A stretch of DNA of 64,000 nt from Candidatus Latescibacterota bacterium (GCA_965200315.1 OZ241362.1:3648001-3712000), one strand, 5' to 3'. Positions 2,986 to 35,955 are shown, counted from the first letter of the stretch. Notes: generated by a model from the sequence alone, not told the origin. Program-made: numbers and translations.

Positions 2986-4371
2986 ATGAAACCCATAGAC
3001 CCCCAAGCTCTGTCGGCACTGACCGCTCTCCTCGGCCCGCGTCTGAATGCGACATCTGAGGTGCGCCACGCCCACGCCGCCGACGCCTCCTACCACGCCC
3101 CGCAACCGCCGCAAGCCGTAGCCTTTCCCACAAGCGTGGAAGAAGTAGCCCAAATCGCCCGGATCTGCACCGCGCACCAAGTGCCGATCGTGCCCTTTGG
3201 CACTGGCACGGCCGTCGAAGGCGGTATTGTCGCAGTGCGCGGCGGCTTGTGCGTCAACCTCTCGCGCATGAACCACATCCTCCGCGTCAGCACCGCCGAC
3301 ATGGACGCCACCGTTGAAGCCGGCGTCACCCGCCAGCAACTCAACGAACACCTCCGAGCACAAGATACCGGCCTGCACTTCCCAGTCGATCCCGGTGCCG
3401 ACGCTTCCTTAGGCGGCATGGCCGCCACCCGCGCCTCGGGCAGCTCGGCAGTGGGCTATGGCACCATGCGCGACAACGTCTTGGGCCTCAAGGCCGTCTT
3501 TGCCGACGGCGCGATTGTCGAAGTGGGCGGACGAGCGCGCAAATCCTCGGCGGGCTACGACCTAACCGCCCTGCTCGTCGGCACCGAAGGCACCCTAGTC
3601 CTTATCACCGAAGTAACCCTGCGCCTAGCCAAGCTGCCAGCGGCCATCTCCGCAGCTGTCTGCCCTTTCGCCGACCTCGACACCGCCGTCGCCGCAGCCA
3701 TCGACGTCCTGAGCGCGGGGCTCCCGGTCGCACGGCTCGAATTGCTCGACGAAGTGCAAATGCAGGCCTGCAACCAATACGCAGGTCTTGATTACGAAGT
3801 GGCACCAACGCTCTTTTTTGAATTTCACGGCACGGAAAAGGGAGTCGTCGAACAAGCGGAAACCGCTGGCGAGTACGTAGCCCGGCGCGGCGGCGGTCCA
3901 TTCCGCTGGGCCACGGCCGAGGGCGAGCGCGACCGCTTGTGGCAGGCGCGCTACGATGCCTACTACGCCTCGCGTGCGCTCCGCCCCGGCTCAGTCGGCT
4001 ATGTAACCGATGTCTGCGTACCGATCACAGCCCTCGCCCGCTGCATCCACCAGACGAGAGCCGCGCTGGCCGACCTCGACTTTCCCGCGCCGCTCTTCGG
4101 CCACGTCGGCGACGGCAACTTCCACGTCGTCTGCCTCATCGAACCGGGCAACGCCTCAGAACTCGCGCAGGTTCAACGGCTAGGCGAGCAAATCGTCGAA
4201 TGGGCGCTCCAAGCCGGAGGAACCTGCACCGGCGAACACGGCATCGGCCTGGGCAAAATCGACGCGCTCGAAGCCGAGTGCGGTCCAGGCGTTGAGATCA
4301 TGCGCCGCATCAAAAAAGCACTCGACCCGGACAACTTGATGAACCCAAGCAAGGTTCTGAATGGCTTGTAG
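2986..4371 (+). CDS. FAD-linked oxidase / D-lactate dehydrogenase (GlcD-like)
   Basis: PFGTGTAVEGG, FPVDPGADASLGGMAATRASG, KSSAGYDL, GHVGDGNFH, GTCTGEHGIGLGK, LDPDNLMNPSK. Confidence 0.92.
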   Translation: MKPIDPQALSALTALLGPRLNATSEVRHAHAADASYHAPQPPQAVAFPTSVEEVAQIARICTAHQVPIVPFGTGTAVEGGIVAVRGGLCVNLSRMNHILRVSTADMDATVEAGVTRQQLNEHLRAQDTGLHFPVDPGADASLGGMAATRASGSSAVGYGTMRDNVLGLKAVFADGAIVEVGGRARKSSAGYDLTALLVGTEGTLVLITEVTLRLAKLPAAISAAVCPFADLDTAVAAAIDVLSAGLPVARLELLDEVQMQACNQYAGLDYEVAPTLFFEFHGTEKGVVEQAETAGEYVARRGGGPFRWATAEGERDRLWQARYDAYYASRALRPGSVGYVTDVCVPITALARCIHQTRAALADLDFPAPLFGHVGDGNFHVVCLIEPGNASELAQVQRLGEQIVEWALQAGGTCTGEHGIGLGKIDALEAECGPGVEIMRRIKKALDPDNLMNPSKVLNGL

Positions 4372-4380
4372 CCGCCAAAC

Positions 4381-4824
4381 ATGAGAGTTTATCTAGATAC
4401 TTGCAGCCTTCAGCACCCACTTGACGACAAATCGCCACTGCGCAATCGTCTTGAGGCCGAAGCAGTTTTGAGCATTCTCGACCTTGTTAGAGCCGGTCAC
4501 GTTGAAATTATGTCGTCTGATGTGCTCACTTTTGAAATTGTGCACAATCCGCACCCAGTGCGTCGGGCATTTGCCTTGGAAACTATTTTGGCTGCATCAA
4601 TCTGTGTTCAACACTCGAAAACTGTAACAAGGCGCACTAAAGAGCTATGCCAAACAGGGATTGAGGCTTTGGATAGTCTGCATCTTGTATCGGCTGAAGC
4701 TGGTGAGGCAGACTTTTCTGCACCTGCGACGATTCGCTTCTGCGGAAAGCAAAGTAAGCGGTCAAAGGTAAAATCAGAACTTGCGGAGGAAATAGAAAAA
4801 TGGCAGTCCCAGCTAGGCCATTAA
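4381..4824 (+). pseudogene. PIN-domain (VapC-like) toxin, probably frameshifted near 4714-4717
   Basis: MRVYLDTCSLQHPLDD...RLEAEAVL...ALDSLHLVSAE. The conserved-looking FCTCDDSLLRKAK continues in a shifted frame after gac-tttt. Confidence 0.65.
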
Positions 4825-4964
4825 GCGAAATTAACGAGCAGGCTATTAGGCTCTTAGTGCGGGAAATGGGGCCAGCAGATGCCGTGCGCTTCTGCGGCCA
4901 ATTCACAACGGGCTACGGCGACTACACTAAAGAGCGCAAGAGACAATTAAGAAAGATGCAATAA
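4800..4964 (+). CDS. Small PIN-associated putative antitoxin (54 aa, absent from the ORF track)
   Basis: MAVPARPLSEINEQAIRLLVREMGPADAVRFCGQFTTGYGDYTKERKRQLRKMQ. Overlaps the PIN 3' end, with GGAGG upstream and a GDYTKER motif typical of PIN-partner small proteins. Confidence 0.7.
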   Translation: MAVPARPLSEINEQAIRLLVREMGPADAVRFCGQFTTGYGDYTKERKRQLRKMQ

Positions 4965-5166
4965 TTTGCCGCTTTTCTTTTGTTAGATGGATCTAACAAA
5001 AAACAACCCATTCGGCATGACGACAAGGCAAGCGGTCAATCTCAGGAAGTCCAAGCTAAAAGTGGTGTTGCCGATGGGGTAAGGCTTGGGTGTGGCATGT
5101 TTATTGTCTTGTCCTTGATTATACTTGGACCTATAAGCTACTAGTGATAGTGAAAGGACTTGCAAA

Positions 5167-22402: not shown

Positions 22403-24046
22403 ATGCGCTCTCTGTACCCCCTCGCTATCACTATCGCCCTCGTGGCCTGCTCGCAGGAAAAAAATGCGCCCGTAGCGCGAGTCGATGAAGTGCCTATCTC
22501 AGGAGAGAGCCTGCGCTCTTTTGTCGAAAAGATGCCCGTAGGTTTGCGCCACCCCGAAGGCGGCGACGCGGCCCGGCGTCAGTACGTGCAATCGCTCATC
22601 GATCGCCAGCTAATCCTCAAAGAGGCCATAGCCCACGGGCTGGACACGCTGCGCTCGGTAAAACGCGCCGTTGATGAGGCTGTGGATGCGCGCGTCATCG
22701 CCCTGTACCGGGCACGCAACATAACCTCTCAGGTGCAAGTACCCGAAGAGGATGTGCGCCGCGTCTTTACCGAGGAAGGCTACCACCGCGAGCGCAAGCT
22801 CAACGCAATTTTGGTCCACACCCGCGCTGAAATCGAAGCGGCTGTGGCCGCGCTCGACGCCGGTCAACCCTTTACCGAGGTGGCCCGCTCCCACTCGCTC
22901 GACAAACGCTCGGCTGAACAGGGCGGCGAGTTGGGCTTTATTGGCCGCGAGGCCGCGCCCAGCCTGCATATCCCGGCCGAGGTCTTCAACACGCTGCCCT
23001 TGGCGGAAATATCTGCTCCTTTGCGCGCTGGCCGCAGTTGGCACATCGTCCGCTTCACCGAAGACCGCGACACGCCCTACGAGCGCTACCGGCCCCTCAT
23101 CGAGGAGCAGCTATTCAGAGAGCGTCTAGCCCAAGTTGAAGCCGAGCACTTTGAATCGCTCCGTGCGGCCGCCGAGGCAGCCCTCGACCGCGATGGACTG
23201 CAACTCATGCTCAGCGCGGCCCAGCGAGAAGACGGCGCACTGCTCGACACCTGTACTGCGCCGCTCTACACCTTTGCTGAGGGGCAAGCCACAGTCGCCG
23301 CGGCTTACAAGGCCCTGCGGCGGCTCAATGCCCAGCGCAGCCTCAAAGACAGTGCGCGTGCGAGCACCTCGCTAGACCGGCTGGTATTGCGGCCCCTCCT
23401 CCAGCGGCGCGCCGCCCGCGAACAGGACCTATACGACGACCTGGATGTCCAACGGCTGGCCAAGAGGGCCTACCAAGACGCGCTGCTCAACGCCGTGCGC
23501 AAGCGCTTCGCAGCCATCGAAATGCTCTCCGACGCCGAGGTATGGTCCTACTACGACAGCCATCCCGACATGTTTTATCACGAAGAATCCGTCGAGGTCG
23601 AAGAGCTGCTCGCGTCCAGCCCGGCCGAGGCCCAAGGGCTGAGCGATCAACTTGCTGCTGGCGCGAGTTTTGCCGATCTCGCCGACCGCAGTGTGCGCGC
23701 CCAAGCCGTCCAATCGCAAGCGCGCTTCCACTTCCATCCGCGCGACGAAAAGCTCTATCCGCGCCTAGTCCCGGCCATCTATGAGGCGGAACCCGGCCAG
23801 CTCGTCGGGCCGATTCGGGTGCGCGACGGGTACTCTATTTTCCGCGTCCAAGGACGCAATCCCGGCCGGGTCGAACCGTACGAGCAGGTCCAGCGCCGCG
23901 CCCGCGCTCTGCTGAGACGCGAGCGGGAAAACGCGGCCTTCACCAGCTTCGTCCAAGACTTGCGCCAGCGCTATCAGAGCCGAGTCGAGATCGACGAGCG
24001 CGCCCTCAAGGCCGCCCTGCCGGATTCGCTGGTCCAAGGCACCTGA
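22403..24046 (+). CDS. Peptidyl-prolyl cis-trans isomerase (PpiC/parvulin, SurA-like) lipoprotein
   Basis: Lipobox LVAC and two rotamase-like units (FTEVARSHSLD..SAEQGGELG...SAPL....WHIV; FADLA..S...GPIRVRDGYSIF). Confidence 0.85.
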   Translation: MRSLYPLAITIALVACSQEKNAPVARVDEVPISGESLRSFVEKMPVGLRHPEGGDAARRQYVQSLIDRQLILKEAIAHGLDTLRSVKRAVDEAVDARVIALYRARNITSQVQVPEEDVRRVFTEEGYHRERKLNAILVHTRAEIEAAVAALDAGQPFTEVARSHSLDKRSAEQGGELGFIGREAAPSLHIPAEVFNTLPLAEISAPLRAGRSWHIVRFTEDRDTPYERYRPLIEEQLFRERLAQVEAEHFESLRAAAEAALDRDGLQLMLSAAQREDGALLDTCTAPLYTFAEGQATVAAAYKALRRLNAQRSLKDSARASTSLDRLVLRPLLQRRAAREQDLYDDLDVQRLAKRAYQDALLNAVRKRFAAIEMLSDAEVWSYYDSHPDMFYHEESVEVEELLASSPAEAQGLSDQLAAGASFADLADRSVRAQAVQSQARFHFHPRDEKLYPRLVPAIYEAEPGQLVGPIRVRDGYSIFRVQGRNPGRVEPYEQVQRRARALLRRERENAAFTSFVQDLRQRYQSRVEIDERALKAALPDSLVQGT

Positions 24047-24049
24047 GTG

Positions 24050-25618
24050 ATGACCGCCCGCCTGCTTCGACTTGAGCTCAGCCGAAAATTGCTGATTCTG
24101 GGCGCAATCGCCTGCGCCGACCAACCTTCGGCTGAGCTCAGGTCGAAGCCCGACCCGCAAGACGCGGCGCGCCCCGAAGAAGCCCGCCGCTTGCTCCAGC
24201 GCGGTACGCTCTTCTTACAACAAGATCGGCCTGAACGCGCCTTAGCGGCACTTGAGCAAGCCGTAGCGCTCGATTCCGCGTCGAGCACCGCCCATTTTCA
24301 GAAGGGGCTAGCCCACGTGCGGCTCGACCAGCCCGCACTCGCCATTGCGGTTTTTGAACGCGCTTTGGCCCTGACGCCCGACGACTCGACTGAGCTCGCC
24401 GAAGTCCGGCCCCGCGCTCACTTTGCCCTTGCCGCGGTGCTGCGCGACCAGCACCGCTACCTAGAGGCCGCAAGCCATCTAGAGCAGGCCATCGCCCTCG
24501 CGCCCGAGCGCGCCAAATACCACTTCTATCTAGGCGAGGTGCGCCGCGCCACGGGTGATTTTGCGGGCGCGCTCGCGGCCTTCAACCGCACCATCGAACT
24601 CGCACCCGACGGCTCGACTGAGCTCGCCGAAGTCCACCTTGAAGCCCGCTACTACCACAGCGACCTGCTCGTGCGCAATCAGCAATTGTCCCAAGCGCGC
24701 ACGGGTTTTGCCGACCTGCTCGCCCGCGACCCCAACCACATTCAAGGCGGCTTAGGTCTAGGCGGCTTACTCATCCGCCTCGGCGAACCCACAGCAGCCA
24801 TTCCCGTGCTCCAGCGCGTCGCCGCGACCGACCCTCACAACCCCGCTCCCCACTACCTGCTGGCCCAAGCCTACGCCGAGTGCGACCGACCCGCCGATGC
24901 CCGCGATGCACAGGGCCGCTTCCAGCAGTTGAGCGCAGCCGAACGCCACCTCAATCAGGGCAACATCTACATTCGCCAACGCGCGTGGGACAAGGCGATC
25001 GACTCCCTGAAGCGCGCCCTCTCCAGCGACTCTACTTCGGTGGAAATTCGCCTGCGCCTCGCCACCGTGTACGCACAGCAAAAGCGCTTCGCCGACGCCC
25101 GCGCCATGCTGGAGCAAGTCCTCGCCCGCAACCCCGACGGCTCGACTGAGCTCGCCGAAGTCCACCGCGACGCCTACATCATGCTGGGCGACCTGTACTT
25201 GTACGAGGGTGTGCTCAAAGAAGCCAACGCGCACTTCGTCCGCGCCGTGGCGATTGATCCCGACTCCTTTGCCGCCGCCTATGGCTTGGGCCGCACGAAC
25301 TTCAAAAGCGGTGACTTTGCCGGAGCCGTTGCCGCGTTGCGCCAAGCCCTCGCCCGCAATCCCGACCACCGCGACGCCCACTACGTCCTCGGGCTGGCCT
25401 ATGTCCGCCGAGCTAACTACCGAGATGCCCACACCCATTTCGCCCGTAGCATTGCCCTCGACCCAGACCACGCGGAATCGCACTACGGGCTGGCGCTGAT
25501 CCTCCTGCAGCAAGGACAACGGGAAAAAGCGCGGCAAGCCCTGCAAAAGGTGCTTGCCCTCGCCCCGGATCACCAACGCGCCCGGGCCAAGCTAGGCGAG
25601 CTGGACCAAGCACCGTGA
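24050..25618 (+). CDS. Multi-TPR lipoprotein carrying five in-frame palindromic DNA inserts
   Basis: About 12 TPR-like units, lipobox AIAC, inserted peptides (D/G)STELAEV x3, LRLELSRK and PSAELRSK. Confidence 0.88.
   Translation: MTARLLRLELSRKLLILGAIACADQPSAELRSKPDPQDAARPEEARRLLQRGTLFLQQDRPERALAALEQAVALDSASSTAHFQKGLAHVRLDQPALAIAVFERALALTPDDSTELAEVRPRAHFALAAVLRDQHRYLEAASHLEQAIALAPERAKYHFYLGEVRRATGDFAGALAAFNRTIELAPDGSTELAEVHLEARYYHSDLLVRNQQLSQARTGFADLLARDPNHIQGGLGLGGLLIRLGEPTAAIPVLQRVAATDPHNPAPHYLLAQAYAECDRPADARDAQGRFQQLSAAERHLNQGNIYIRQRAWDKAIDSLKRALSSDSTSVEIRLRLATVYAQQKRFADARAMLEQVLARNPDGSTELAEVHRDAYIMLGDLYLYEGVLKEANAHFVRAVAIDPDSFAAAYGLGRTNFKSGDFAGAVAALRQALARNPDHRDAHYVLGLAYVRRANYRDAHTHFARSIALDPDHAESHYGLALILLQQGQREKARQALQKVLALAPDHQRARAKLGELDQAP
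24065..24086 (+). repeat. Palindromic element variant B, copy 1
   Basis: cttcgacttgagctcagccgaa, reverse complement (1 mismatch) of 24127-24148. Confidence 0.8.
24127..24148 (-). repeat. Palindromic element variant B, copy 2 (inverted partner)
   Basis: ttcggctgagctcaggtcgaag. Confidence 0.8.
24383..24406 (+). repeat. 24-bp coding palindromic element (STELAEV), copy A1
   Basis: gactcgactgagctcgccgaagtc following cccgac. Confidence 0.92.
24611..24634 (+). repeat. 24-bp coding palindromic element, copy A2
   Basis: ggctcgactgagctcgccgaagtc following cccgac. Confidence 0.92.
25139..25162 (+). repeat. 24-bp coding palindromic element, copy A3
   Basis: ggctcgactgagctcgccgaagtc between cccgac and caccgcgac. 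An empty equivalent site cccgaccaccgcgac lies at 25361. Confidence 0.92.
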
Positions 25619-27906
25619 GCCGCCGCTTCCGCGTCCTGTACTTGGCCAGCCTTTGCATCGGCTGCCAAGCCCCGCCCGAAGCCGAAAGCGATCGCGTCTA
25701 TGCCAAGGCCCTGAGCCTGCTGCACCAAGGGCAGTTCTCAGATTCCGAGGCCCTCTTCCGGCGCGTCGTCAGCTTGGCACCCGACAGCACGATTGCCCAG
25801 ATCCGCCTTGGCGAAGCCCTGCTCCGCCAAGGCCGGCGGCAGCGTGCGGCCCGCCTCCTCGACGAGCTGCCCGCGCCAGCGCACCAGCGGCCAGAAGCCC
25901 GCCTCCTCGAAGCGCGGCTCCTCGCCTTTGGCGGTTTTGCCCGCGAGGCCGAACTCGCCGTCAATGAAATCCTCGACCAACACCCCAACTCGCTCGATGG
26001 CCGCCTGCTGCTGGCTGAATTGTATTTGCAGGCCGCTGCCACCATGAACCTCGAGCGCGCCACGGCCCTGTGCAGCGAAGCACTATCCGCCCAACCCCAG
26101 CGCCGCGACGCACATTACCTGTTGCTCCAAGCCACGCTGCGCCTCGGCCGCTTTCCCGCAGCCTTGGAACGCAGCCGCTCGTTACTCGACGCCTATCCAA
26201 ACGATGGCCATGCCTATCTCTTGGCCGGTACCGCGGCCTTCTGGGCAGGAGACGACCGCGCCCGGCCTTGGCTCGAAGAAGCGGTCGATCTGTTGGAGTC
26301 AATAGATCGCCTAGAGGCCCTGTGGCTGCTCAAGCTGACCCACGAGCGGCAGGGCGAAGATGCACCGGCATTGCTGCCGCGCTATCGCTTTCCCCGGCGC
26401 GCCTCAGTGCCTGCAACAACCGACTTGCGCTTTGTCGATGTGGCCACGCACGTCGGCGTGGCCAAGAAAGATCGCGGCCGCGGCAGTGCTTGGCTCGACT
26501 TTGACGGCGATGGCGACTTCGATCTCTTCAGCGTGGGCATCCAAGCCGAACATTCGCTCTACCGCAACGATGGCGGCCAATTTCGCGATGTCGCCCAAGC
26601 AACCGGGCTAGCCGACGCGCGCGGCGGTTGGGCGGCGGCGAGCGCGGACTTTGACAACGACGGGGACGACGACCTGTTTGTCAGCCGCGACGCCTGGGAG
26701 GGCCGGGCACCCAACTCACTGTACCGCAACGACTCGGGTGCCTTCATCGACAGCGGGCGCGCGGGCGGCGTGGCCGACTCCAGCGACAGCTTTACGGCGG
26801 CTTGGCTCGACTTCGACGCCGACGGGTACCTCGATTTGTATGTGGCCAACGGCGTCACCGGTACGGGCGCGGCAAACGCCCTTCTGCACAACCAGCAAAA
26901 CGGCGCGTTCCGCAACGTGGCGGCGGCCGCTGCGGTCGCCGACTCAGGCCAGACCATTGGCACGGCCGCTGGCGACTTCGACGGCGATGGCCGCACCGAC
27001 CTGTACGCGGTCAACATCGGCCAGCGCAACCGCCTCTTTCGCAACCTCGGCGACGGCACCTTTGCCGATGTGGCCGAGCGCGCCGGCGTCCTTTTCCCGG
27101 TGGAAGGCGGGTATGTGGCGTTCTTCTTCGACCTTGACAACGACGGGCATCTCGACCTATTTGCTTCAACTATGAGTGCCTTTCCCGATGTCCTCAACAG
27201 CATGGTCACCGGTGAGGCTATTGAGCCCAACCGGCCCTTTCTCTATCTCAACATGGGCGACGGCACGTTTGCCGACATCGCGGTCGCTGCGGGACTCAAG
27301 CGTTCTTTCGGCAGCATGGGCGCGGGTCTCGGCGACATAGACAACGACGGTTTCATCGATATCTACCTCGCCAACGGCGGCCCGCAAATGGCCCGGCTCG
27401 AACCCAACGCGCTCTTCCGCAACATGGGCGACGGCACGTTTGCCGACATTACGGCCACCGCGGGCACCGGCAGCCTTGGCAAGGGCCACGGGGCCACCTT
27501 CGCCGACTTCGACCAAGACGGCGACTTGGATCTTTACGCTGGTTTGGGCGGCCACTACGACGCCGACACTTGGGACAACGCGCTCTATCGCAACGACGGC
27601 CCGGTGCAGCACTACCTGTCCATTGATCTTGTGGGCACACAGGCCAACCGCAGCGGGCTGGGTGCGCACGTTGCAGCCTTTGCCGCCGGCCGCGCCATCC
27701 GCGCCCAGCGCCAGAGCGGCTTTGGGTTCGGCAGCAGCAACGAGCCGCTCCTGCACCTCGGGTTGGGGTCGGCCACCCGCGTCGATAGCCTGCACGTACT
27801 CTGGCCCGGCCAGCCCCCACAACGCTTCTTTGACCTGCCCGTCGATTGCCGCATCCGCATCGCACAAAGCGCGGCGCACTACCAGATTCTCAGGAGGGCA
27901 CCATGA
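25615..27906 (+). CDS. TPR + FG-GAP/VCBS repeats + ASPIC/UnbV (CRTAC1-like) protein
   Basis: N-terminal TPRs, repeated DFDGDGDFDL / DFDNDGDDDL...LYRN.G, C-terminal GFGSSNEPLLHLGLG..TRVDSLHVLWPG. Confidence 0.9.
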   Translation: MSRRFRVLYLASLCIGCQAPPEAESDRVYAKALSLLHQGQFSDSEALFRRVVSLAPDSTIAQIRLGEALLRQGRRQRAARLLDELPAPAHQRPEARLLEARLLAFGGFAREAELAVNEILDQHPNSLDGRLLLAELYLQAAATMNLERATALCSEALSAQPQRRDAHYLLLQATLRLGRFPAALERSRSLLDAYPNDGHAYLLAGTAAFWAGDDRARPWLEEAVDLLESIDRLEALWLLKLTHERQGEDAPALLPRYRFPRRASVPATTDLRFVDVATHVGVAKKDRGRGSAWLDFDGDGDFDLFSVGIQAEHSLYRNDGGQFRDVAQATGLADARGGWAAASADFDNDGDDDLFVSRDAWEGRAPNSLYRNDSGAFIDSGRAGGVADSSDSFTAAWLDFDADGYLDLYVANGVTGTGAANALLHNQQNGAFRNVAAAAAVADSGQTIGTAAGDFDGDGRTDLYAVNIGQRNRLFRNLGDGTFADVAERAGVLFPVEGGYVAFFFDLDNDGHLDLFASTMSAFPDVLNSMVTGEAIEPNRPFLYLNMGDGTFADIAVAAGLKRSFGSMGAGLGDIDNDGFIDIYLANGGPQMARLEPNALFRNMGDGTFADITATAGTGSLGKGHGATFADFDQDGDLDLYAGLGGHYDADTWDNALYRNDGPVQHYLSIDLVGTQANRSGLGAHVAAFAAGRAIRAQRQSGFGFGSSNEPLLHLGLGSATRVDSLHVLWPGQPPQRFFDLPVDCRIRIAQSAAHYQILRRAP

Positions 27907-30900
27907 GGCTCTTAGCGTTTCTCGTCATCTGCTTGGCACCCTTGGCCGCAGCCCACGCTCAAAAGGGCCATCGCGTCACCAGTCGCTCCGTAGTGGTCAA
28001 TAGGGCCGCGCACTGGCACAATTGGCAGCTACCTATCCACGCGGTGAAGGTGTCGCCGGACGGCGTGGTCGAGCCGCACTTTTTCCGCGCACACTTCAAC
28101 TTGCTCGACGACTTGCAGACCTTCACCCGCCCCATCCCCGAGCTGCGTCGCCGCCGCAACCAGACCGCCATCCTCAACATCGACAGCACCCAGACCCGCG
28201 ACGTGAAAGGCGAGATCATCGCCGACCGCAAGGGCAATCCCATCTACTCCTATTTCTTTCGCCCGGGCATTAGCCGCGTCGGCTCGAATGCAGCCGCGGC
28301 CGCCAACATCCTCGACGCCGACCCAACCACCTTCTGGGAGCCCGACCCGCAGGCACCGATCGACGACTGGTGGATCGAAATAGACTTGGGCCGCGTCGTG
28401 GCGGTTGATTCCCTCGTCATCCACTTCGTCGAGGAAGAGTTGGGCGACCCCTTCTTCCAGTTCCGCGTCCTCGCCGCACCCGACCAAGAGCCGGTGCAGG
28501 AAAACGCCGACAAAATCACCTTTGAACGCATCGCCCACACCAAGGCCCCTAATCGCGACCAGCGCACCTTCCGCATTGGCCTCGAACAGCTCAATGCCGA
28601 CTCCGACTGGCAGGGCAAGATGGTGCAGACCATCCGCATCGTGGCCAGCGATACGCGCGGCGAGCACGGCGAGCGCATCGGCGAAGCGGAATGGCAGGCT
28701 TTGCCAGCCGACGAGCGCGGCGCAATCGTTCATTTCATCCGCGACGAACAGGGTTTTGAAGAGCCGGTGGAGCGCGCAGTCTATGAAAGCCTCGACCCCC
28801 AGCGCCAAGGCCGTTTGGATTACTACCGGCGCGAGCGGCCGCGCCTAGCCGGGATTGAGGTGTACGGGTTTGGCGACAACATCAGCAGCGGCTTGGTGGC
28901 CGGCGGCGGCCATCTCGACTTAACCGGCGATGGCTTTCTGCCGGGGCCGGCTTTTGACGCGGATTTCAACACCAGCTTCCTGCACCTCGTTTGGTCGCCA
29001 ACCATTGACCGCGGCGTACTCACCGTCGACATGGGCGCGTCGTTTTGGCTCGACGCCATGCGCATTTCCTCGGCCCGGCCCCAGCCCTTTATCGACGGCT
29101 ACTTGATCCGCGGATCCGATGGCTCGCGCGACACCCGCGGCAAGATCAAGTGGGTGCGCCTCAGCCCCCGCGCCCGCGAGGACAATAGCTCGGACCGCTT
29201 TGAACATATCGTCGATACCTATGCGCCTAGCCCCAAGCTCCGCTTTCTCGAAATGAGCATCATCTCGTCGGACCCGCGCCGCCGAGGCGGGTACAACACC
29301 GGGCCGACCATTGCCGAGTACCAGCTTTTTTCCACCGGCTATCCAGCGCAAGTGGAGCTGACTTCCGATCTGATCGCGCTGCCTGGAGTGCGCAACTTCG
29401 GGGCCATCACCTATGAGGCCGAGACCCCCCCGGGCACGACCGTCGCAATTCGCACCCGCACCGGCGACTTGCTGGGCAAGGCCATTCGCTACTTCGACAA
29501 AACGGGCAACGAAATCACTTATGACGCTTGGAAAAACCTGTTGGGCAGCTTCAAGGGGCCAGCCGACACCACCTTCGTGCCCACCAGCGGCTGGAGTCCT
29601 TGGAGCCGCGCCTACCAGCAACCCGGCGACATCGTCACCTCCCCCGGCCTGCGCAAATTCATGCAGTTCCAAGTCGAGATGATTACCACCGACCGCGAGG
29701 CCGCGGCCTCGATCCGCTCGCTCGCAGTTGAGTTGCTCAATCCCGTGGCCGAGCGCATCGCGGCCGAGCTGTGGCCGGCCTCGGTGGAGGTCGCCGGTGA
29801 GCGGGAGACCTTTGATGTCTTTGCTCAGCCCTACTTTATCGAGTCGCCTGCGGCCTCGCGCAGTGCTGGCTTCAACGAAATCCTGCTGACCATGCCGGCC
29901 TCGGAAGCCCTCGAGCTTTTGGAATTTGGCCTCGGTAGCCCAGACGGCGAAAAGGTCTTTCGCCCCGGGGCCGAGCGCGGCGTGTTCACGGCCAGCGACC
30001 AGACGCAGGCCGCGCTTTTGGCCAACGGCGGCGACTCGATCTGGGTGCGCCTAGACGATGCGCTCAACATCCTGCCCGCGGCCAGCCGCACGTACAATCG
30101 CATTACCCTTGAGGGCGAAGAGGTCCCCGTGACTCAAGACGGTTTGCCGCTTACGGCCGCGGCGTACGGCACCCTCGACGAAGACGAACGAGGAGCCATC
30201 CGCTACTTCCGCCGCAACGGCGAGCAAATCAGCGAGATCGACCAAACTAGCTACCGCGACCTGCCCGGCGAGGAGCAAGGCCCCGTCCGCTACTTCCGCA
30301 TTCTGCGCGGCGACGGAGCGCAGTTTCCTTTTGACGCGCACGGCGACTCGCTCGACTCGCGTACGTACAATCGCCTCTCGGCGAGCTTGCGCGGCATTGT
30401 CACCGGGCCGGGCCAGCGCTTCCGCTTGCGCCTTTCTGCGCCGGTCTTTCTCAACGGCACGACCTTGCGCCTGTTCGTGCGCCACGCCGCAAGCGCCGAC
30501 GCCGAGGTGGCGTGGCAGGCTGTTGAAGAAGGCAACGCCGATGAGGGCGTCGCCAGCAACACGCTGTCGGTCAACGTCCCCATCGACGGCGACCTCCTCC
30601 ATGGTCTCGCAGTCGGCCCCAATCCTTTTACCCCCAACGGCGACGGGATCAACGACGCGGCGGAAATCTCGCTGGATATCTTCAAGCTCACTTCCAGCCG
30701 TCGCCTCCAAGTGCGAATTTACACGCTCGATGGGCGACGGGTTTGGCAGCGCGAGGAAATGGTGCTGAGCGGCCGCACCACCGTGCGCTGGGACGGCGTT
30801 GATGACCGCGATCGCCGAGTGCCGCCCGGGCTGTATCTGTGCCAAGTCCAACTCGACGCCGACGCCGCACAACAGGCGACAACCCAAGCGCGGATTATCG

Positions 30901-30914
30901 CTGTGGCCTACTAG
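27903..30914 (+). CDS. Large secreted protein with discoidin-like domains and C-terminal FlgD-Ig/CHU_C-like domain
   Basis: Signal peptide, ILDADPTTFW...WWIEIDLGR (F5/8-C-like), C-terminal PNPFTPNGDGINDAA...IYTLDGRRV...WDGVD....VPPGLYL...IAVAY. Confidence 0.82.
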   Translation: MRLLAFLVICLAPLAAAHAQKGHRVTSRSVVVNRAAHWHNWQLPIHAVKVSPDGVVEPHFFRAHFNLLDDLQTFTRPIPELRRRRNQTAILNIDSTQTRDVKGEIIADRKGNPIYSYFFRPGISRVGSNAAAAANILDADPTTFWEPDPQAPIDDWWIEIDLGRVVAVDSLVIHFVEEELGDPFFQFRVLAAPDQEPVQENADKITFERIAHTKAPNRDQRTFRIGLEQLNADSDWQGKMVQTIRIVASDTRGEHGERIGEAEWQALPADERGAIVHFIRDEQGFEEPVERAVYESLDPQRQGRLDYYRRERPRLAGIEVYGFGDNISSGLVAGGGHLDLTGDGFLPGPAFDADFNTSFLHLVWSPTIDRGVLTVDMGASFWLDAMRISSARPQPFIDGYLIRGSDGSRDTRGKIKWVRLSPRAREDNSSDRFEHIVDTYAPSPKLRFLEMSIISSDPRRRGGYNTGPTIAEYQLFSTGYPAQVELTSDLIALPGVRNFGAITYEAETPPGTTVAIRTRTGDLLGKAIRYFDKTGNEITYDAWKNLLGSFKGPADTTFVPTSGWSPWSRAYQQPGDIVTSPGLRKFMQFQVEMITTDREAAASIRSLAVELLNPVAERIAAELWPASVEVAGERETFDVFAQPYFIESPAASRSAGFNEILLTMPASEALELLEFGLGSPDGEKVFRPGAERGVFTASDQTQAALLANGGDSIWVRLDDALNILPAASRTYNRITLEGEEVPVTQDGLPLTAAAYGTLDEDERGAIRYFRRNGEQISEIDQTSYRDLPGEEQGPVRYFRILRGDGAQFPFDAHGDSLDSRTYNRLSASLRGIVTGPGQRFRLRLSAPVFLNGTTLRLFVRHAASADAEVAWQAVEEGNADEGVASNTLSVNVPIDGDLLHGLAVGPNPFTPNGDGINDAAEISLDIFKLTSSRRLQVRIYTLDGRRVWQREEMVLSGRTTVRWDGVDDRDRRVPPGLYLCQVQLDADAAQQATTQARIIAVAY

Positions 30915-30951
30915 TTATTGCTGGAACACCTAGGGCCGATTACCATTGAGC

Positions 30952-31019
30952 ATTAGGAATTAGAGTTTGCCAATCAGCATGAATTAGGAGACGGTTGGGT
31001 ACATTCGTAATTCCTAATT
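30952..31019. repeat. Inverted heptamer (AATTAGG/CCTAATT) repeat cluster, intergenic
   Basis: attaggaattag...gaattagga...attcgtaattcctaatt. Confidence 0.5.
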
Positions 31020-31034
31020 GAAGGAGGGATTGCA

Positions 31035-33698
31035 GTGAACCGGAAATGGATGTTCTGGACGGCAATAGCCGTTTTGTGGCTCGGCAGTGCTGCTGCCGAA
31101 GCCCAAGAATACGGAGCGCGCATCGGCACCGTCAAAAAGGGCGGGGTGGTTTCCTTTGAGCCGCAGGGGCCGGGCGTCCTGTTCGGTGCCCTCGACCCGG
31201 CCAAGCGCCGGTGGTACGTGCCGCAGGAGCTTTTTAACGAATACCAGTGGCGTCAGTGGGAATACTCCAACTATGCCCGCGATCACTACCAGCGCTACGT
31301 CAGCGCCATCCGCGAAGGCGATTACTACTACGACCTCTACGGCAACCTCATCACCCGAGGCTGGCTGGTTTTCAACAACTCACAGACCCAACCCCGGCAG
31401 TTTGGCTCTTCGGTGCTGAAGTCCAGCAATTTCGATCGCTGGTTTAGCGGCGTGGTCATCTCGGCCGACTCCAAGGGCCAGCACCACTACGCCCTGACGG
31501 CCGGCACCAAGATTCGCTCGACCCTGACGCCGATGACCTTTTCCAAGCCGCGCTGGGACGGCATTCAATTCGACTACGCGGCCGACAAATACCAAGGCAC
31601 CCTGATCTACTCGCGCATCAGCCGCCCCGGCGGCACGTCGACCAACGATCAAGAGAGCTTGGTCACCAACGCCACATCCATGTTCGGCAGCCGCGCCACC
31701 GCGCAGGTGGGCGATTTCGCCACCGTGGGGCTGACCATGGTCAACGCCCACCAGTCCAACACCCTCATTGACGGCTTTACCGGCAACCCCTTCACCGGCG
31801 AGCTATCGGTCGATCAAAACCAGACCGTCTCGATCATCGAAGTCGTCTTGCGCGACGACAGCCCCGAGGACGGCGTCGGCGGCGCGGCCTTCTTCAGCGC
31901 CGGTTCGGACATCATCATCACTTATCTCGACGGCACGCAAGACAACGGCAAGGCCATTCGCTTTGAGCCGATCGTCGAGGGCGGCCTCGTGGGAGAAGGC
32001 TTCCTTTCGGCCGATGGCGTCGAGGAGATTCGCCTGCGCTACGACTTTGACAGCCCGGCCTTTGTCAACCGCGCTTCGGGCACCAAAGAAGAAATCAAAA
32101 AGGTCGAGTTTCGCCTCGTGCTGGGCAACGACTATCAGGTTTGGGTCACCTCCGACAGCCAGCTCAACGCCGGTGGCGAGTCCGTGCTCTTGCTCGTTGC
32201 CCAAGCCGAGGGCAATGTCCGAGACAACACCAATTTGCAGATCGTCAGTTTCGACTACGGCCTGCCGACTTCCACCCAGATCTGGGGAGCAACCCTAGAG
32301 CTGCAACAGGTCCTCGGCTTCGACTTCTACGGCGAGTACGACCTGAACTACAACTACACCAAGTACCCCAATGTAGTCGCCAAAACCCACACCACCTTCT
32401 CGGGCATCCGCGGCGACCGCGCCGCGGCCGCGTGGATGATGAACCTCTCGCGGGTCGCGTTTCCCTTCTTCTTCTTTGGCGAGGCATACAGCATGGACCC
32501 TCGCTATTCCACCCGCACGTTCACCGCGCAAGGCGATGGCTTTATCGACTACGAGGACGAACGCATCCACGTCGTCGAACTGGTCGAGGACAACGACGAC
32601 CAAGACGAATTTCCCGATACCGTGCGCAAGGACTGGCAGACCGGCGATCCGAGCGTCTTCCCCGGCTGGGACGAGAACAACGACTTCATCTCGGATTTCA
32701 ACCAGAACGACAACCGCTTCTTGAGCAACCTCATCCCAGACTACGAGGAGCCATTCCTGCGCCACAACGTCGATCGGCCCGAATTCCTCTTCGGCATCGA
32801 CCTGAACAACAACCTGTGGGTCGATCGCTTTGAAAACGACGAACTGCCCGACTATCCCTACAAGAGGGATCACCAAGGGTACAACGTTTACGGCGGCTTC
32901 CACTTCACCCCCGAGCTGCGGCTGATGGTCGGCGTCTTGCGCGAGGATCTCATTTCTTCCAACCAAAAAAACCACGCCAATTACGTCCTACTGACCCTCG
33001 ACCGCGACACCCCTGATTGGGGTCGCTTCCGCGTCTTTGAGATGCTCAAATCCACTACCGACGACATTCCCGACGACCTCTTGCAGTGGCTGCCCAACGC
33101 CAATATCCGCACCGGTGAACCAACCAAAGTCGAGGATCCTCTCATCGCGCGCGACGCTTGGATCAACAGCCTGTGGGTCGGCCACGACTACAAGCTGGGC
33201 GGCCTGCTGACGGCCAATTACCTCAAATACGACTTGTATCACCAGCGGCTCAGCGCCAATGAGCGCGCGCTGTTGGGCCTGCGCGAGCGCGATTTTTTCT
33301 TTGGCCTAATCAACAAAATCAGCTACCGCTTCGACTTTGGGCACCTGTGGCTGGAGCCGCGCTGGAAAAGCGAGTACCGCCGCCAGAGCCGCGACCTGAT
33401 TTCGGCTGATGAACGCACCGAACTGGCCGAGATAGGCGGCTTCGTCCTCGGTTTTCCCCTGCTCAGCCACACGACCCTGCTGAGCGGGCTAGAGATGACC
33501 TTCCTCAACGACATGAAGCGCGACTCCAACGACTTCAACGGCCTAGTCTGGGCCTTGCAGTTGTCCAATATCTCCGATTATCTCGGCTACAAAGTCACGA
33601 CCCACGCGGGCATGAAAATCGACCGCCGCCAGCCCCGAGGCGAGGACGCCGTGATTATCAATCAGATCTTTATTTCCATCTACGCGGGCTTGCAATAA
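31035..33698 (+). CDS. Large secreted or outer-membrane hypothetical protein with acidic Ca-binding-like region
   Basis: Signal peptide (AEA-Q), GGAGG RBS, DNDDQD/DENND/DLNNN motifs, amphipathic beta strands ending FISIYAGLQ. Confidence 0.75.
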   Translation: MNRKWMFWTAIAVLWLGSAAAEAQEYGARIGTVKKGGVVSFEPQGPGVLFGALDPAKRRWYVPQELFNEYQWRQWEYSNYARDHYQRYVSAIREGDYYYDLYGNLITRGWLVFNNSQTQPRQFGSSVLKSSNFDRWFSGVVISADSKGQHHYALTAGTKIRSTLTPMTFSKPRWDGIQFDYAADKYQGTLIYSRISRPGGTSTNDQESLVTNATSMFGSRATAQVGDFATVGLTMVNAHQSNTLIDGFTGNPFTGELSVDQNQTVSIIEVVLRDDSPEDGVGGAAFFSAGSDIIITYLDGTQDNGKAIRFEPIVEGGLVGEGFLSADGVEEIRLRYDFDSPAFVNRASGTKEEIKKVEFRLVLGNDYQVWVTSDSQLNAGGESVLLLVAQAEGNVRDNTNLQIVSFDYGLPTSTQIWGATLELQQVLGFDFYGEYDLNYNYTKYPNVVAKTHTTFSGIRGDRAAAAWMMNLSRVAFPFFFFGEAYSMDPRYSTRTFTAQGDGFIDYEDERIHVVELVEDNDDQDEFPDTVRKDWQTGDPSVFPGWDENNDFISDFNQNDNRFLSNLIPDYEEPFLRHNVDRPEFLFGIDLNNNLWVDRFENDELPDYPYKRDHQGYNVYGGFHFTPELRLMVGVLREDLISSNQKNHANYVLLTLDRDTPDWGRFRVFEMLKSTTDDIPDDLLQWLPNANIRTGEPTKVEDPLIARDAWINSLWVGHDYKLGGLLTANYLKYDLYHQRLSANERALLGLRERDFFFGLINKISYRFDFGHLWLEPRWKSEYRRQSRDLISADERTELAEIGGFVLGFPLLSHTTLLSGLEMTFLNDMKRDSNDFNGLVWALQLSNISDYLGYKVTTHAGMKIDRRQPRGEDAVIINQIFISIYAGLQ

Positions 33699-33711
33699 GC
33701 GTACAGCACCA

Positions 33712-35955
33712 ATGGCTAGACGCTGGATGTTTATGGGGGTGGTGGCCGTTTTCGCGCTCGCCTTCTCTGTGCGCCTGTACTACCTCCACGAAATACGCGT
33801 CAGCCCGCTTTTCACCGCGCCCGTCGTCGATGCCCGCACCTATACCGAGGAGGCTCGCTACCTCAGCGAAATCTCCTTTGCGGGTCGGCCCGCACCCTTT
33901 TGGCAACCGCCGCTCTACCCAGTTCTGCTCGGCGTCCTCTTTGCCTTCGCCGGAGACGACCTCTACCTGCCGCGACTCATCCAAGCCGTCATTGGCGCAC
34001 TCGTCTGCGTCCTCATCTGCCTGTTGGGATACCGGGGCTTTGGCGCGGGGGTCGGGCTCGGGGCGGGTTTTGCCGCAGCGTTATACGGTCCCCTCATCTA
34101 CTTTGGCGGCGAGTTGCTGCCAACCCTGCTGGCCTGTTGCCTCAACTTGCTCGTGCTGCTGCTCGCAGTCGGCACGGGCGGTTGGGCGCGCTGGCTAGCA
34201 GCCGGCGTGCTGCTGGGCCTGTCCGCGCTCGCCGTGGCCAACGTGCTGCTCTGTGCGCCGGTGCTGTTGGGCTATCTCTACTGGCGGCAGCGACAGCTTC
34301 GCCCGCCCGCTTTTCTGCTTTTGGGCTGCGCGCTGGTCATCGCGCCGGTCGCGTATCGCAACTGGGCGGTCGGCGGCGATAGCGTGCTCATCTCGCACAA
34401 CGCGGGCATCAACTTTTACATCGGCAACAACGCCGACTACGAACAAACGACCCGCATCCGCCCGGGACGGGATTGGGTCGAGCTGGTGGAAATGCCCGAG
34501 CGCCGCGCCGGCATTGAGCAGCCTTCGGCCAAGTCGCGCTATTTTTTTGCCCAATCTTGGCAATACATAACCTCCGAGCCGCTCGATTTCTTGGGCTTGC
34601 TGGCTTACAAGGGATATCTGTTCCTGCGCGGCGACGAAATCCCGCGCAATCGCGACCTCTACTTCGCCCGCAACGACTCCTCGCTTTTGTCGATCCTGCT
34701 GTGGAAAAAGGGGCTGGCGTTTCCCTTCGGCTTGGTCGCGCCGCTGGCTCTTTTGGGACTTTTTGTTTTTCTCCGTTCCCCCGAGCCTCCCGAGGGGCGC
34801 TTGCTGGTGCTCTTTGTGGTTTGCTATGCACTTTCCGTGGTTCTGTTTTTCGTCACCGCACGCTATCGCCTGCCAGCCGTGCCGGTGCTGTTGCTGTTTG
34901 CAGCTTATGGGGTACGCTTCCTGTGGCACCGGACTTCGGTGAGCTCAGTCGAGTCGTCGAAGCCTTGGCCCGCGTTCGCCGCGGTTGCCGCGCTCTTGAT
35001 CTTTTGCAATGTGGCCACGGGCGCGATGGACCGAGAGGGCAATGCCCACGAGCACTACTATCTCGGCTATGCCTACGAGCAACGGGACATGCCGGCCCAC
35101 GCTGCCCGCCACTACCGCCGCGCCATTGACCGCGACCCTACCTTCGCCGAACCACTCCTTGCACTCGCGGCACTCCACGGCGAGGCCGAGCGCTACGGCA
35201 AGGCCATCGACCTCTATCGGTGCTATCTTAAAACGCAGCCCCACGACGCGGACGTGCGCTTTCTCCTCGGCCACACCGCACTGCTCGCTCGGCGCTACGA
35301 CGAGGCTGCGGCCGCGTACGACGAGGTCGCAGCAGCGCGGCCCAATTGGGCGGCCGCGCACGGCGGCCTCGGCTACGCCCTCCTGATGGCAGACCAACCC
35401 CAACGCGCCGCCCGAGCTTATAGCCGTACGCTCGAACTAAACCCAGACTCGACGCTCGTGCGCTATCAACTGGCCCGCCTGTACGCGGAGCAGGGACAAA
35501 ACCGCGCGGCCATCGCCGAGTTTGAGCAACTCGTGCAGCGCGAGCCGCACGTATCCGAATATCCAACCCGCCTCGCCGACTTGCTCATCCAACTCGAACA
35601 AGGGACGGGCATGGCCCTCGGGCAGACCGCCCGACTAGCGGAAGCCGAAAAACTCTTGCGCCGCGCCATCGCGCTCGGCTCTAAGGCCGCGCATCCCCAT
35701 TGGAGCTTGGGTATGCTCTACGCCTGCCAAGGGCGCTATGCAGAGGCCGTGCCCCTGTTTGAGCACTTGCTCCAGATCGCTCCGCGCGACTTTCAAGCCC
35801 ATCTATTCCTCGGGCACCTCTACCAACGCAGCGGACGCCAAGCCGATGCGGACGCTCAATTCGCGGCCTTTAGCCGCAGCCAGCGCGCCTACCGCATGGA
35901 AAAAGTGGCACGTCGGGAAATGGAAGCCCAGATCGAACAAATTTTCGGCGGTTGA
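33712..35955 (+). CDS. GT39/PMT_2 (ArnT-like) glycosyltransferase with C-terminal TPRs
   Basis: VDARTY.EEA, PFWQPPLYP, NAGINFYIGNN, FFVTARYRLP, followed by multiple TPRs. Confidence 0.87.
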   Translation: MARRWMFMGVVAVFALAFSVRLYYLHEIRVSPLFTAPVVDARTYTEEARYLSEISFAGRPAPFWQPPLYPVLLGVLFAFAGDDLYLPRLIQAVIGALVCVLICLLGYRGFGAGVGLGAGFAAALYGPLIYFGGELLPTLLACCLNLLVLLLAVGTGGWARWLAAGVLLGLSALAVANVLLCAPVLLGYLYWRQRQLRPPAFLLLGCALVIAPVAYRNWAVGGDSVLISHNAGINFYIGNNADYEQTTRIRPGRDWVELVEMPERRAGIEQPSAKSRYFFAQSWQYITSEPLDFLGLLAYKGYLFLRGDEIPRNRDLYFARNDSSLLSILLWKKGLAFPFGLVAPLALLGLFVFLRSPEPPEGRLLVLFVVCYALSVVLFFVTARYRLPAVPVLLLFAAYGVRFLWHRTSVSSVESSKPWPAFAAVAALLIFCNVATGAMDREGNAHEHYYLGYAYEQRDMPAHAARHYRRAIDRDPTFAEPLLALAALHGEAERYGKAIDLYRCYLKTQPHDADVRFLLGHTALLARRYDEAAAAYDEVAAARPNWAAAHGGLGYALLMADQPQRAARAYSRTLELNPDSTLVRYQLARLYAEQGQNRAAIAEFEQLVQREPHVSEYPTRLADLLIQLEQGTGMALGQTARLAEAEKLLRRAIALGSKAAHPHWSLGMLYACQGRYAEAVPLFEHLLQIAPRDFQAHLFLGHLYQRSGRQADADAQFAAFSRSQRAYRMEKVARREMEAQIEQIFGG
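34932..34955 (-). repeat. 24-bp coding palindromic element, copy A4 (reverse orientation, read as TSVSSVES)
   Basis: gacttcggtgagctcagtcgagtc, reverse complement of A1 with 1 mismatch, followed by gtcg (CGAC on the minus strand). Confidence 0.9.

Follow-up and report, generated by a model that had tools for sequence, protein, structure and literature searches.

A 64,000-nucleotide stretch of DNA from a Candidatus Latescibacterota bacterium (GCA_965200315.1 OZ241362.1:3648001-3712000; hereafter, the window) carries copies of two related 24-bp near-palindromic sequences, termed families A and B, many of which correspond to clean gaps in the orthologous genes of relatives. We consider it probable (roughly 70%) that A and B are sister families of non-autonomous mobile elements, which would insert through single-stranded or hairpin DNA with the help of an enzyme acting in trans. 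The A 24-mer is among the smallest mobile DNA elements seen. The host genome, referred to as G000, consists of one contig of 5.36 Mb with 59.2% GC, in which the window occupies G000:C1:3648001-3712000. Other G numbers denote further genomes, and L numbers denote loci retrieved from relatives, IMG/VR and metagenomes, L001 being the TPR locus of the window itself.

Copies of families A and B in the window and the host genome

Family A is defined by the pattern G(A/G)CTCGACTGAGCTCGCCGAAGTC. Three perfect matches occur on the plus strand of the window, at 24383-24406, 24611-24634 and 25139-25162, and a fourth, with 1 mismatch, on the minus strand at 34932-34955, as an original prediction made from the sequence alone had reported; the number expected from 100 dinucleotide-preserving shuffles is 0.00. 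The three plus-strand copies lie in a gene at 24047-25618 (plus strand) whose 523-aa product consists entirely of TPR by Pfam and holds five elements in all, the orthologues being 483-520 aa long. Each of the three is preceded by CCCGAC; copy 1 (GACTCGACTGAGCTCGCCGAAGTC) is translated as DSTELAEV, and copies 2 and 3, which are of the GGC variant, as GSTELAEV. The fourth match, translated as TSVSSVES, lies in a PMT_2 (GT39-like)+TPR gene (33712-35955, plus strand, 747 aa). The original prediction took it to be another 24-bp insert placed after CGAC, but it is part of a 30-bp hybrid insert at 34933-34962 (minus strand) that encodes TSVSSVESSK (10 aa) and joins a B-type left end, CTTCGAC, to an A-like body with one change; the CGAC thus belongs to the insert and not to the target. 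The hybrid is preceded by GG on its own strand, and a 30-base gap stands at its site in all 22 aligned orthologous loci (L094-L115, with a 1-base ambiguity).

A fuzzy search of G000 exposed the second family, B (CTTCGACCTGAGCTCAGCCGAAGG), which is also commoner than A and has the words TCGAC, TGAGCTC and GCCGAAG in common with it. The B 26-mer GGCTTCGACCTGAGCTCAGCCGAAGG has 10 perfect copies in G000 and 29 at up to 4 mismatches, as compared to 1 match at up to 6 mismatches in the reversed-genome control. Family A is represented by 18 copies at up to 4 mismatches (a scan with the GGC form of the pattern returned 19 entries, one of them resembling a chance match), and its copies are dispersed genome-wide rather than confined to one gene. 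Two of the B copies are in the TPR gene of the window. The first, at 24065-24088 (plus strand), is degenerate (CTTCGACTTGAGCTCAGCCGAAAA) and contributes LRLELSRK to the N-terminal region of the protein; the second, at 24125-24148 (minus strand), is perfect on its own strand, is flanked by GG and encodes PSAELRSK directly after the Cys of a putative lipobox. The original prediction thus had the A copies right, but it missed these two B copies, the hybrids and the spread of A outside the lineage. Besides plain A and B there are hybrids of 30 bp and 48 bp as well as nested copies, and a relative (L055) has plain B where G000 has a 30-bp hybrid form, which is why we think that 30-bp hybrids may derive from nests of A within B by an 18-base deletion between GCCGAAG repeats. 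Element A is free of stop codons in 5 of its 6 frames and element B in 4 of 6. A search of Rfam (E <= 1) with window positions 23500-35500 returned a single match, a chance hit to miR-598 that is distant from the elements.

Filled and empty orthologous sites

Within the genus, orthologues of the TPR protein have identities of 85-91% and vary in length in steps that are mostly multiples of 8, as most have 483 aa and others 485, 491, 499, 507 or 520 aa, compared with 523 aa in the window. A codon alignment of L001-L011 resolves this variation into clean 24-bp presence or absence at six sites, namely the five copies of the window gene and one site that is filled in L002 only. A copy 1 is filled in L001-L004 and L006, where the allele reads CCCGAC-GACTCGACTGAGCTCGCCGAAGTC-CAGCCC, and empty (CCCGAC^CAGCCC; the caret marks the insertion point) in L005 and L007-L011. 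A copy 2 is filled in L001, L003, L005 and L006 and empty in the remaining aligned orthologues; at this site L006 holds a second A nested in the first, after TCGAC. A copy 3 is filled only in L001 and L002, in the latter of which it is interrupted by 15 additional bases, and is empty (CCCGAC^CACCGC) in L003-L011. The degenerate B copy at 24065-24088 reads CGCCTG-CTTCGACTTGAGCTCAGCCGAAAA-TTGCTG in L001 and faces a clean 24-bp gap (CGCCTG^TTGCTG) in the 10 other aligned orthologues, L002-L011, from which it follows that B, too, measures 24 bp. The B copy at 24125-24148 is filled in L001 and L002 only, with a 24-bp gap (GACCAA^CCCGAC) in L003-L011. An empty site was also noted by the original prediction within the TPR gene itself, where a paralogous segment reads ARNPD-HRDA instead of ARNPD-GSTELAEV-HRDA, and we find it as described.

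The same pattern extends over the genome. From seven relatives we drew 40 A copies and 40 B copies, each together with flanks of 400 bases, for alignment to G000. The corresponding G000 site was empty for 28 of the A copies, filled for 4, partial for 3 and unspanned for 5; the equivalent counts for B were 25, 8, 3 and 4. Among the 28 empty A sites, the gap spanned 24 columns in 15 cases, 26 in 1 and 48 (nested pairs) in 8, the other 4 being untidy, and among the 25 empty B sites it spanned 24 columns in 24 cases and 25 in 1. Some rows represent one orthologous site in several relatives, so that fewer than 53 independent events underlie the empty sites. These filled and empty alleles, both in the TPR gene and genome-wide, bear out the earlier proposal that each insertion adds 8 codons without a measurable target duplication.

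Target sites, nesting and hairpins

The target of A was tallied over 43 distinct sites (55 copies) in the genus. The base at position -1 is C at all 43 sites; position -2 has a purine at 42 of the 43 (A at 31, G at 11) and T at the remaining one, and position +1 is a pyrimidine in 39 of 43 (C in 21, T in 18). The target preference is accordingly RC^Y, looser than the CGAC^C given by the original prediction. In the case of B, GG stands directly before 21 of 21 G000 copies found with the bare 24-mer as query, against a background GG frequency of 0.079; only G000 copies were counted, because the B loci of the relatives had been picked with GG in the query. Empty B sites carry one GG. Since a filled site has GG on both sides and an empty site has it once, two descriptions of B are equivalent, namely 24 bp placed beside GG and a 22-bp unit with a GG repeat of 2 bases; for A, likewise, 24 bp following C is equivalent to a 23-bp unit with a repeat of 1 base. 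Any target duplication is therefore at most 1 base for A and 2 bases for B.

Many insertions are in other copies of the elements. A is found in B after TTCGAC, in the middle of reverse-complemented B or of A after GAGC, and in A after TCGAC, and element-like words are present in the 12-base flanks of 23 of the 43 distinct A sites. Sites into which A has inserted are also prone to form hairpins. For 94 A copies from metagenome and viral loci, the reconstituted 36-base sites have a mean minimum free energy (MFE) of -5.99 kcal/mol, as compared to -3.69 kcal/mol for 938 controls from the same loci that were matched on the two bases before the site (Mann-Whitney p = 8.5e-12), and 63% of the sites but 27% of the controls reach -5 kcal/mol or lower. 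The insertion point falls in the hairpin loop or at its edge, more often toward the 3' arm (in dot-bracket notation of the two bases around it, 25 '))', 24 '..', 10 '(.' and 5 '(('). Within the genus, where 24-base sites were folded, the effect is smaller (p = 0.0015 for A and p = 0.04 for B), and the preference is not significant for the non-nested B sites.

Distribution in the phylum and beyond

At up to 2 mismatches, A occurs in 18 of the 31 genomes of the genus, often as perfect copies and with up to 28 copies per genome. Its distribution over the phylum is patchy: at up to 1 mismatch it is found in 18 of 168 genomes, which comprise G000, 15 of the 30 other members of the genus and two distant genomes, G029 (5 copies) and G052 (1 copy), and in none of 45 genomes from the rest of the family. 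Of 41 relatives, G000 among them, 16 have the B 26-mer, and every one of these belongs to the genus. Outside the genus, B was looked for in 16 genomes of other genera (a sample of the class) and, as the exact 24-mer, in IMG/VR contigs, these being the only sets searched, and it was found in neither.

The exact GGC form of A reaches much further, as 9 IMG/VR contigs and at least 120 metagenome stretches contain it. We read 89 of these outside loci, which hold 94 A copies and range in GC content from 0.40 to 0.71. Their flanks are mutually unrelated, and the target preference is again evident, with C at -1 in 94 of 94 copies, a purine at -2 in 83 and a pyrimidine at +1 in 72. One of the IMG/VR contigs (L132, 13.3 kb, 64.5% GC) is a structural module of a tailed phage with portal, head-protease, neck, tail, tape-measure and fibre genes; A occurs in it twice in exact form, once within the N-terminal portion of the head-protease open reading frame (ORF) and once in an intergenic position. 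Many of the outside copies lie within other palindromes, such as REP-like hairpins (..GGCGGAGC[A]CTCGCCCTACC.., with [A] standing for the element), B-like words (..CCCTGAGC[A]CTGTCGAAGGG..), A-like copies and terminator-like stem-loops. A search of metagenome loci for one REP-like host repeat with a strict regular expression, which was too narrow, gave 3 filled and 0 empty copies. In L152, L163, L187 and L190, A occupies one constant position of a larger repeat (..GTCCC.GAGGGAC..TAGC[A]C..), and it seems to have been carried along as that repeat multiplied. The stretch of DNA in the window is itself found in DNA and RNA-library sequencing runs of at least two studies.

Host genes and reading frames

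Predicted coding sequences (CDS) of G000 hold 13 of the 18 A copies and 24 of the 29 B copies. With 88.8% of the genome coding, the share of B is near random (binomial p = 0.37) and that of A slightly below it (p = 0.043), as compared to 9 of 58 copies in CDS for the classical REP family described below. All four open frames of B are used, in both orientations (GFDLSSAEG, LRPELSRR, PSAELRSKP and LRLSSGRS), as are four of the five open frames of A ((D/G)STELAEV, TSASSVE, FGELSRV and LRRAQPSR), and this variety of frames and orientations fits insertion at the DNA level that is filtered by selection rather than a protein motif. The hosts include an M81/MlrC peptidase, a PQQ dehydrogenase with ankyrin repeats, a DsbH-like protein, PurL, an S58 peptidase, a GHMP kinase, a TPR+TonB_C protein and an FG-GAP/ASPIC protein. 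The original prediction's focus on envelope proteins was therefore too narrow, given hosts such as PurL, the PQQ dehydrogenase, the M81 and S58 peptidases and the GHMP kinase.

The TPR protein illustrates how the inserts may be accommodated. In a structure model of it (AlphaFold2, 8-sequence alignment, mean predicted local distance difference test (pLDDT) score 86.5), the three A inserts are placed at turns between repeats as N-terminal extensions of the following helix, so that the extended helices have 20 residues as compared to 13-14 for the others, and the local pLDDT dips at the inserts to 67 (block 111-120), 75-77 and 59 (block 361-370). These positions agree with the earlier suggestion that the Pro-Asp codons of the TPR units (CCC GAC^C) supply a preferred target for A at inter-repeat turns, where the modelled pLDDT is 59-77. 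Both B inserts fall in the N-terminal 40 residues of the model, which have low confidence. The N-terminus of the protein resembles a lipoprotein signal (..LLILGAIAC^ADQ.., the caret here following the Cys of the putative lipobox; window positions 24047-24160), with one B copy within the charged n-region of this putative signal and the other just past the Cys.

Two RNA-library runs contain the TPR gene. Record 25 of contig X7 covers 24275-24960 without a gap and so retains A copies 1 and 2, and record 17 of contig X5 covers 24000-24216 and retains both B copies; among the RNA-library contigs over this gene we found no skipping joints, joined forms or length variants. Contigs lose rare variants and so are uninformative about polymorphism in the population, and they tend to stop at element copies.

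Proposed mechanism and alternative explanations

Each insertion adds exactly 24 bp, with A entering after a purine and C and before a pyrimidine and B entering beside GG. In the mechanism that we favor, the machinery would work on single-stranded DNA or on an extruded hairpin, a step suggested by the hairpin-prone character of the reconstituted targets and by the position of the insertion point in the loop or at its edge. It would be provided in trans by an enzyme, for which nicking and joining of the HUH type is the best analogy; the HUH mechanism put forward by the original prediction is, as applied to A and B, a guess. Because the frames are largely free of stops and the length is a multiple of three, genic copies survive as 8-residue inserts in whichever frame happens to be open, and selection, rather than the mechanism of insertion, would account for the open-frame genic copies in turns, termini and linkers. 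The presence of exact A in unrelated microbial and phage DNA implies that the element or its mobilizer passes between lineages. A bolder version of this proposal, which we hold only tentatively and with the odds against it, is that A, with its 24 nucleotides, would be the smallest transposable unit so far, a mobile DNA that crosses phyla and has no genes and no element-specific transposase in its hosts. A conserved housekeeping or phage-delivered enzyme of single-stranded DNA would then paste it into hairpin loops at RC^Y, making it a general source of 8-residue indels with occasional bursts such as that in this genus.

Several observations weigh against the proposed mobility or against parts of the mechanism. 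No enzyme family tracks A or B in a search that covered Y1_Tnp, Resolvase, the TnpB zinc ribbon, Y2_Tnp and IS110. The only Y1_Tnp match in G000 is RAYT-like and is flanked by repeats of the GGGTGCGCGGGCGTCTCGC type, not by A or B. Among the relatives in the genus, six have full tnpA-tnpB IS605 units and all six carry A or B, but the left and right ends of these units (L119-L121, L123) are unrelated to A and B, and no GAGCTC occurs within 1.5 kb of them. The A-rich genomes G010, G012, G014 and G022 have no Y1 match, A-free G025 has a full tnpA, and G029, with its 5 A copies, has Y1 fragments only. Resolvase has 0 matches in G000 and is found in 1 of the 31 genomes of the genus, TnpB is represented in G000 by a 49-aa fragment, and Y2_Tnp (6 of 31) and IS110 (10 of 31) do not follow A or B and are both absent from G000. 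A scan of G000 for half-sites found A and B halves only in full 24-bp copies or in chance 1-mismatch matches, with no long parent element, and all-against-all clustering of the 2176 ORFs of the 89 outside loci revealed no recurrent neighbor, the best family being present at 4 loci.

Other points on the same side concern the DNA and its context. The free-strand hairpins of A and B are both weak, folding no more strongly than shuffled sequences (MFE -1.2 to -4.5 kcal/mol, z-scores +0.98 to -1.18), and no covariation links base 2 of the element to base -2 of the target, hence there is no sign of guide-type pairing. A is co-oriented with the local GC skew in 6 of 16 copies and thus lacks the strand bias that transposition of single-stranded DNA predicts; for B the figure is 18 of 24 (Fisher p = 0.006, with 5 ambiguous copies dropped), on a skew map that is irregular. 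The genic shares depend on gene calls by our own crude codon-usage caller (4309 genes, 88.8% of G000 coding), and 3 more B copies overlap predicted gene starts. Since RNA libraries can contain DNA, the case for retention of the inserts in mRNA is a weak one. Finally, the states of the sites A1, A2, A3 and B2 are not tree-like on TPR trees, for which only the gene and its upstream region were used; A1, for example, is present in L001, L002, L003, L004 and L006 but missing from L005 and L008 within a clade supported at 99%. These states fit repeated insertion, precise loss or recombination of alleles, which are not separable here. On the downstream side of the TPR gene (columns ~3420-5150 of the alignment of L001-L012) the loci fall into two groups with non-homologous sequence, described by the patterns 110110010101 and 001001101010, and this segment distorted a first tree.

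A repeat family of the classical REP kind (GTGCGCGGGCGTCTCGCC) is also present in G000, with 58 copies at up to 2 mismatches, 49 of which are intergenic and 9 of which are in CDS, and some of its copies form perfect inverted pairs, for example at 712791/712817. At locus L013 (G000:C1:705399-709085) a RAYT-like Y1 domain, with the HUH motif NHVHVL and YY..R, lies in frame inside a 1228-aa ORF of a DUF1156-like methylase type; two REP-type repeats bracket the domain, giving GARASR on both sides. Comparable long open frames surround the Y1 match in G008, G013 and G045.

We consider it unlikely, but worth weighing first, that A and B are moved by a Y1 HUH transposase, either IS200/IS605 TnpA or RAYT, through excision of a single strand and pasting 3' of a short motif. 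Much about the elements is reminiscent of such a system: they are imperfect palindromes with a bulge, they leave no measurable duplication, the target motif resembles the 3' end of the element (GAC^ versus GTC^ for A and RGG^ versus AGG^ for B), the targets are prone to form hairpins, B is co-oriented with GC skew, and within the genus full-length tnpA is confined to six element-bearing genomes, all with A or B. The genes themselves argue otherwise, as a repeat other than A or B brackets the RAYT-like gene of G000 and the IS605 ends of the relatives are unrelated to A and B. The original prediction's link to HUH or RAYT enzymes is one of analogy. At least nine element-rich genomes lack a full Y1 gene, A-free G025 has one and G029 has fragments only, and A shows neither a strand bias nor guide-like covariation and forms weak hairpins.

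It is rather improbable that no transposase is involved, and that the copies arise by template switching or microhomology-primed copying at hairpin-stalled forks during replication or repair, or by recombination of alleles. Such a process would explain why no enzyme was found and why the targets are hairpins and other copies of the elements; targets and element ends have 1-3 bases of identity (GAC with GAC..GTC; GG with GG), 30-bp-type hybrids resemble slippage products of nests, and the presence of copies does not follow the gene tree. Against it, the borders are exact to the base at dozens of independent sites with a microhomology of merely 1-2 bases, and an identical 24-mer at 40-71% GC requires either a sequence-specific agent or horizontal transfer of the template.

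Very little probability attaches to the idea that B, and perhaps A, is a mini-derivative of IS607 type that is moved by a serine recombinase crossing over at GG. IS607 inserts beside or between GG with a duplication of 0-2 bp, a pattern that B matches, as it is always beside GG and ends in GG and can thus be read as a 22-bp core plus a 2-bp GG repeat; but G000 has no Resolvase gene, only 1 of the 31 genomes of the genus has one, and the borders of A have no matching dinucleotide. That the copies are a protein-level repeat, a local duplication in the TPR gene or an artefact of assembly or sequencing can practically be dismissed: three of the four copies initially named are in one repetitive gene, and exact identity of A across metagenomes is unusual, but the copies occur in both orientations, in several frames and in unrelated hosts, which upholds the original view of a DNA-level, orientation-independent, non-autonomous mobile element, mutated copies are common to orthologous sites of independently assembled genomes, empty alleles are contiguous, C stands at -1 in 94 of 94 outside copies, and the stretch recurs in the DNA and RNA-library runs noted above.

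Implications

If the comparisons of filled and empty sites are a guide to how A and B move, mobile DNA able to proliferate within genes has a new lower limit of size. They would also constitute a simple mutational source of 8-residue insertions in conserved enzymes and other proteins (PurL, PQQ dehydrogenase, peptidases and TPR proteins). The identity of A over 40-71% GC, including a phage module, points to a sequence-specific mobilizer that travels or to a conserved host activity, either of which would be new. On the practical side, element inserts break de Bruijn assemblies, and the length variation that they cause may pass for sequencing error or protein repeats, while the inserts themselves are usable as markers of recent divergence among uncultured genomes.

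Other features of the host genome

The cumulative GC skew of G000 has a maximum near 0.42 Mb and a broad minimum at ~2.9-4.3 Mb, a shape that implies very unequal replichores, or rearrangement or misassembly. Many palindromic hexamers are strongly avoided (for example, observed/expected ratios of 0.06 for CAGCTG, 0.06 for GTGCAC, 0.05 for GTTAAC, 0.10 for TTCGAA and 0.11 for TCCGGA), which suggests many restriction-modification systems; GAGCTC occurs at 0.52 of expectation. Counts of 14-mers further reveal very large sets of CRISPR-like repeats, with two variants ending in ..GGGGATTGAAAC that have 246 and 109 copies and a third that has ~30.

Comparison with known systems

A literature search with the sequence of both strands, with descriptors and with Latescibacterota mobile elements as terms returned no prior description, although its coverage was incomplete and an earlier description is possible. 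A and B lack defining features of every named family with which we compared them, the nearest being cyanobacterial SDRs, Rickettsia palindromic elements, REP/REPIN-RAYT systems, IS200/IS605 and IS607. Rickettsia palindromic elements (RPE) are characterized, in PMC10969869 (citing Ogata 2000, 2002), as palindromic selfish DNA that resides in frame in unrelated genes and is apparently tolerated there. A and B likewise insert in frame in ORFs. RPE are ~100-150 bp long, use one conserved peptide frame and are limited to Rickettsia, whereas A and B have 24 bp and use four to five frames, and A is cosmopolitan.

REPINs, which are described as miniature mobile DNA in PMC3116915, and the REP-RAYT systems to which they belong resemble A and B in being short imperfect palindromes with many dispersed copies, and G000 has its own REP system around a RAYT-like gene. 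REPs are extragenic, however, as in G000 with its 49 of 58 intergenic copies, whereas most copies of A (13 of 18) and B (24 of 29) are in CDS; moreover, A is often found in the loop of a REP-like hairpin rather than forming such a hairpin itself, and neither A nor B flanks the RAYT gene. The hallmark of REP sequences is a stable imperfect hairpin with a conserved 5' tetranucleotide of the GTAG type. On inspection of the sequences, GTAG is at neither end of A or B, and their free-strand hairpins are weak.

IS200/IS605 elements insert 3' of a short motif without target duplication and depend on hairpins and single-stranded DNA, but, unlike A and B, they extend over hundreds of bases and carry two subterminal hairpins that differ from each other. 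Considered as IS200/IS605 mini-elements, A and B exhibit insertion 3' of a short motif and 24-bp gaps; they do not share ends with a resident insertion sequence (IS), and their occurrence does not track tnpA. Of the features of IS607, which crosses over at GG, GG on both sides of the insert is seen for B only, and the serine recombinase gene is missing from G000 and from 30 of the 31 genomes of the genus. Miniature inverted-repeat transposable elements, as derivatives of DDE insertion sequences bounded by terminal inverted repeats, would be expected to have a parent IS with the same ends, which is absent from G000 (the only genome searched), and a target duplication of fixed length, whereas A and B show none beyond 1-2 bases. 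The GC clusters and double-hairpin elements of fungal mitochondria are very short palindromic mobile DNA that can be in coding regions; they differ in being organellar, in their sequences, in usually being longer and in forming GC-rich islands in AT-rich DNA.

The SDRs (small dispersed repeats) of heterocyst-forming cyanobacteria are described, in papers citing Elhai et al. (2008, Genome Res 18:1484), as repeats of ~20 nucleotides that are believed to be mobile, and they resemble A and B in their precise, site-specific insertion and in that no transposase is known for them. The citing papers give their size as 21-27 nucleotides, and A and B, with 24 bp and with filled and empty sites, agree with them in size and mobility. 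A and B probably differ from SDRs in sequence, and they differ in being mostly genic and in frame and, for A, in occurring at very different GC contents, and their host lineage is not cyanobacterial, nor is G000 rich in highly iterated palindrome 1 (HIP1; 156 observed versus 150 expected, ratio 1.04). SDRs are also said to nest within one another, as A and B do.

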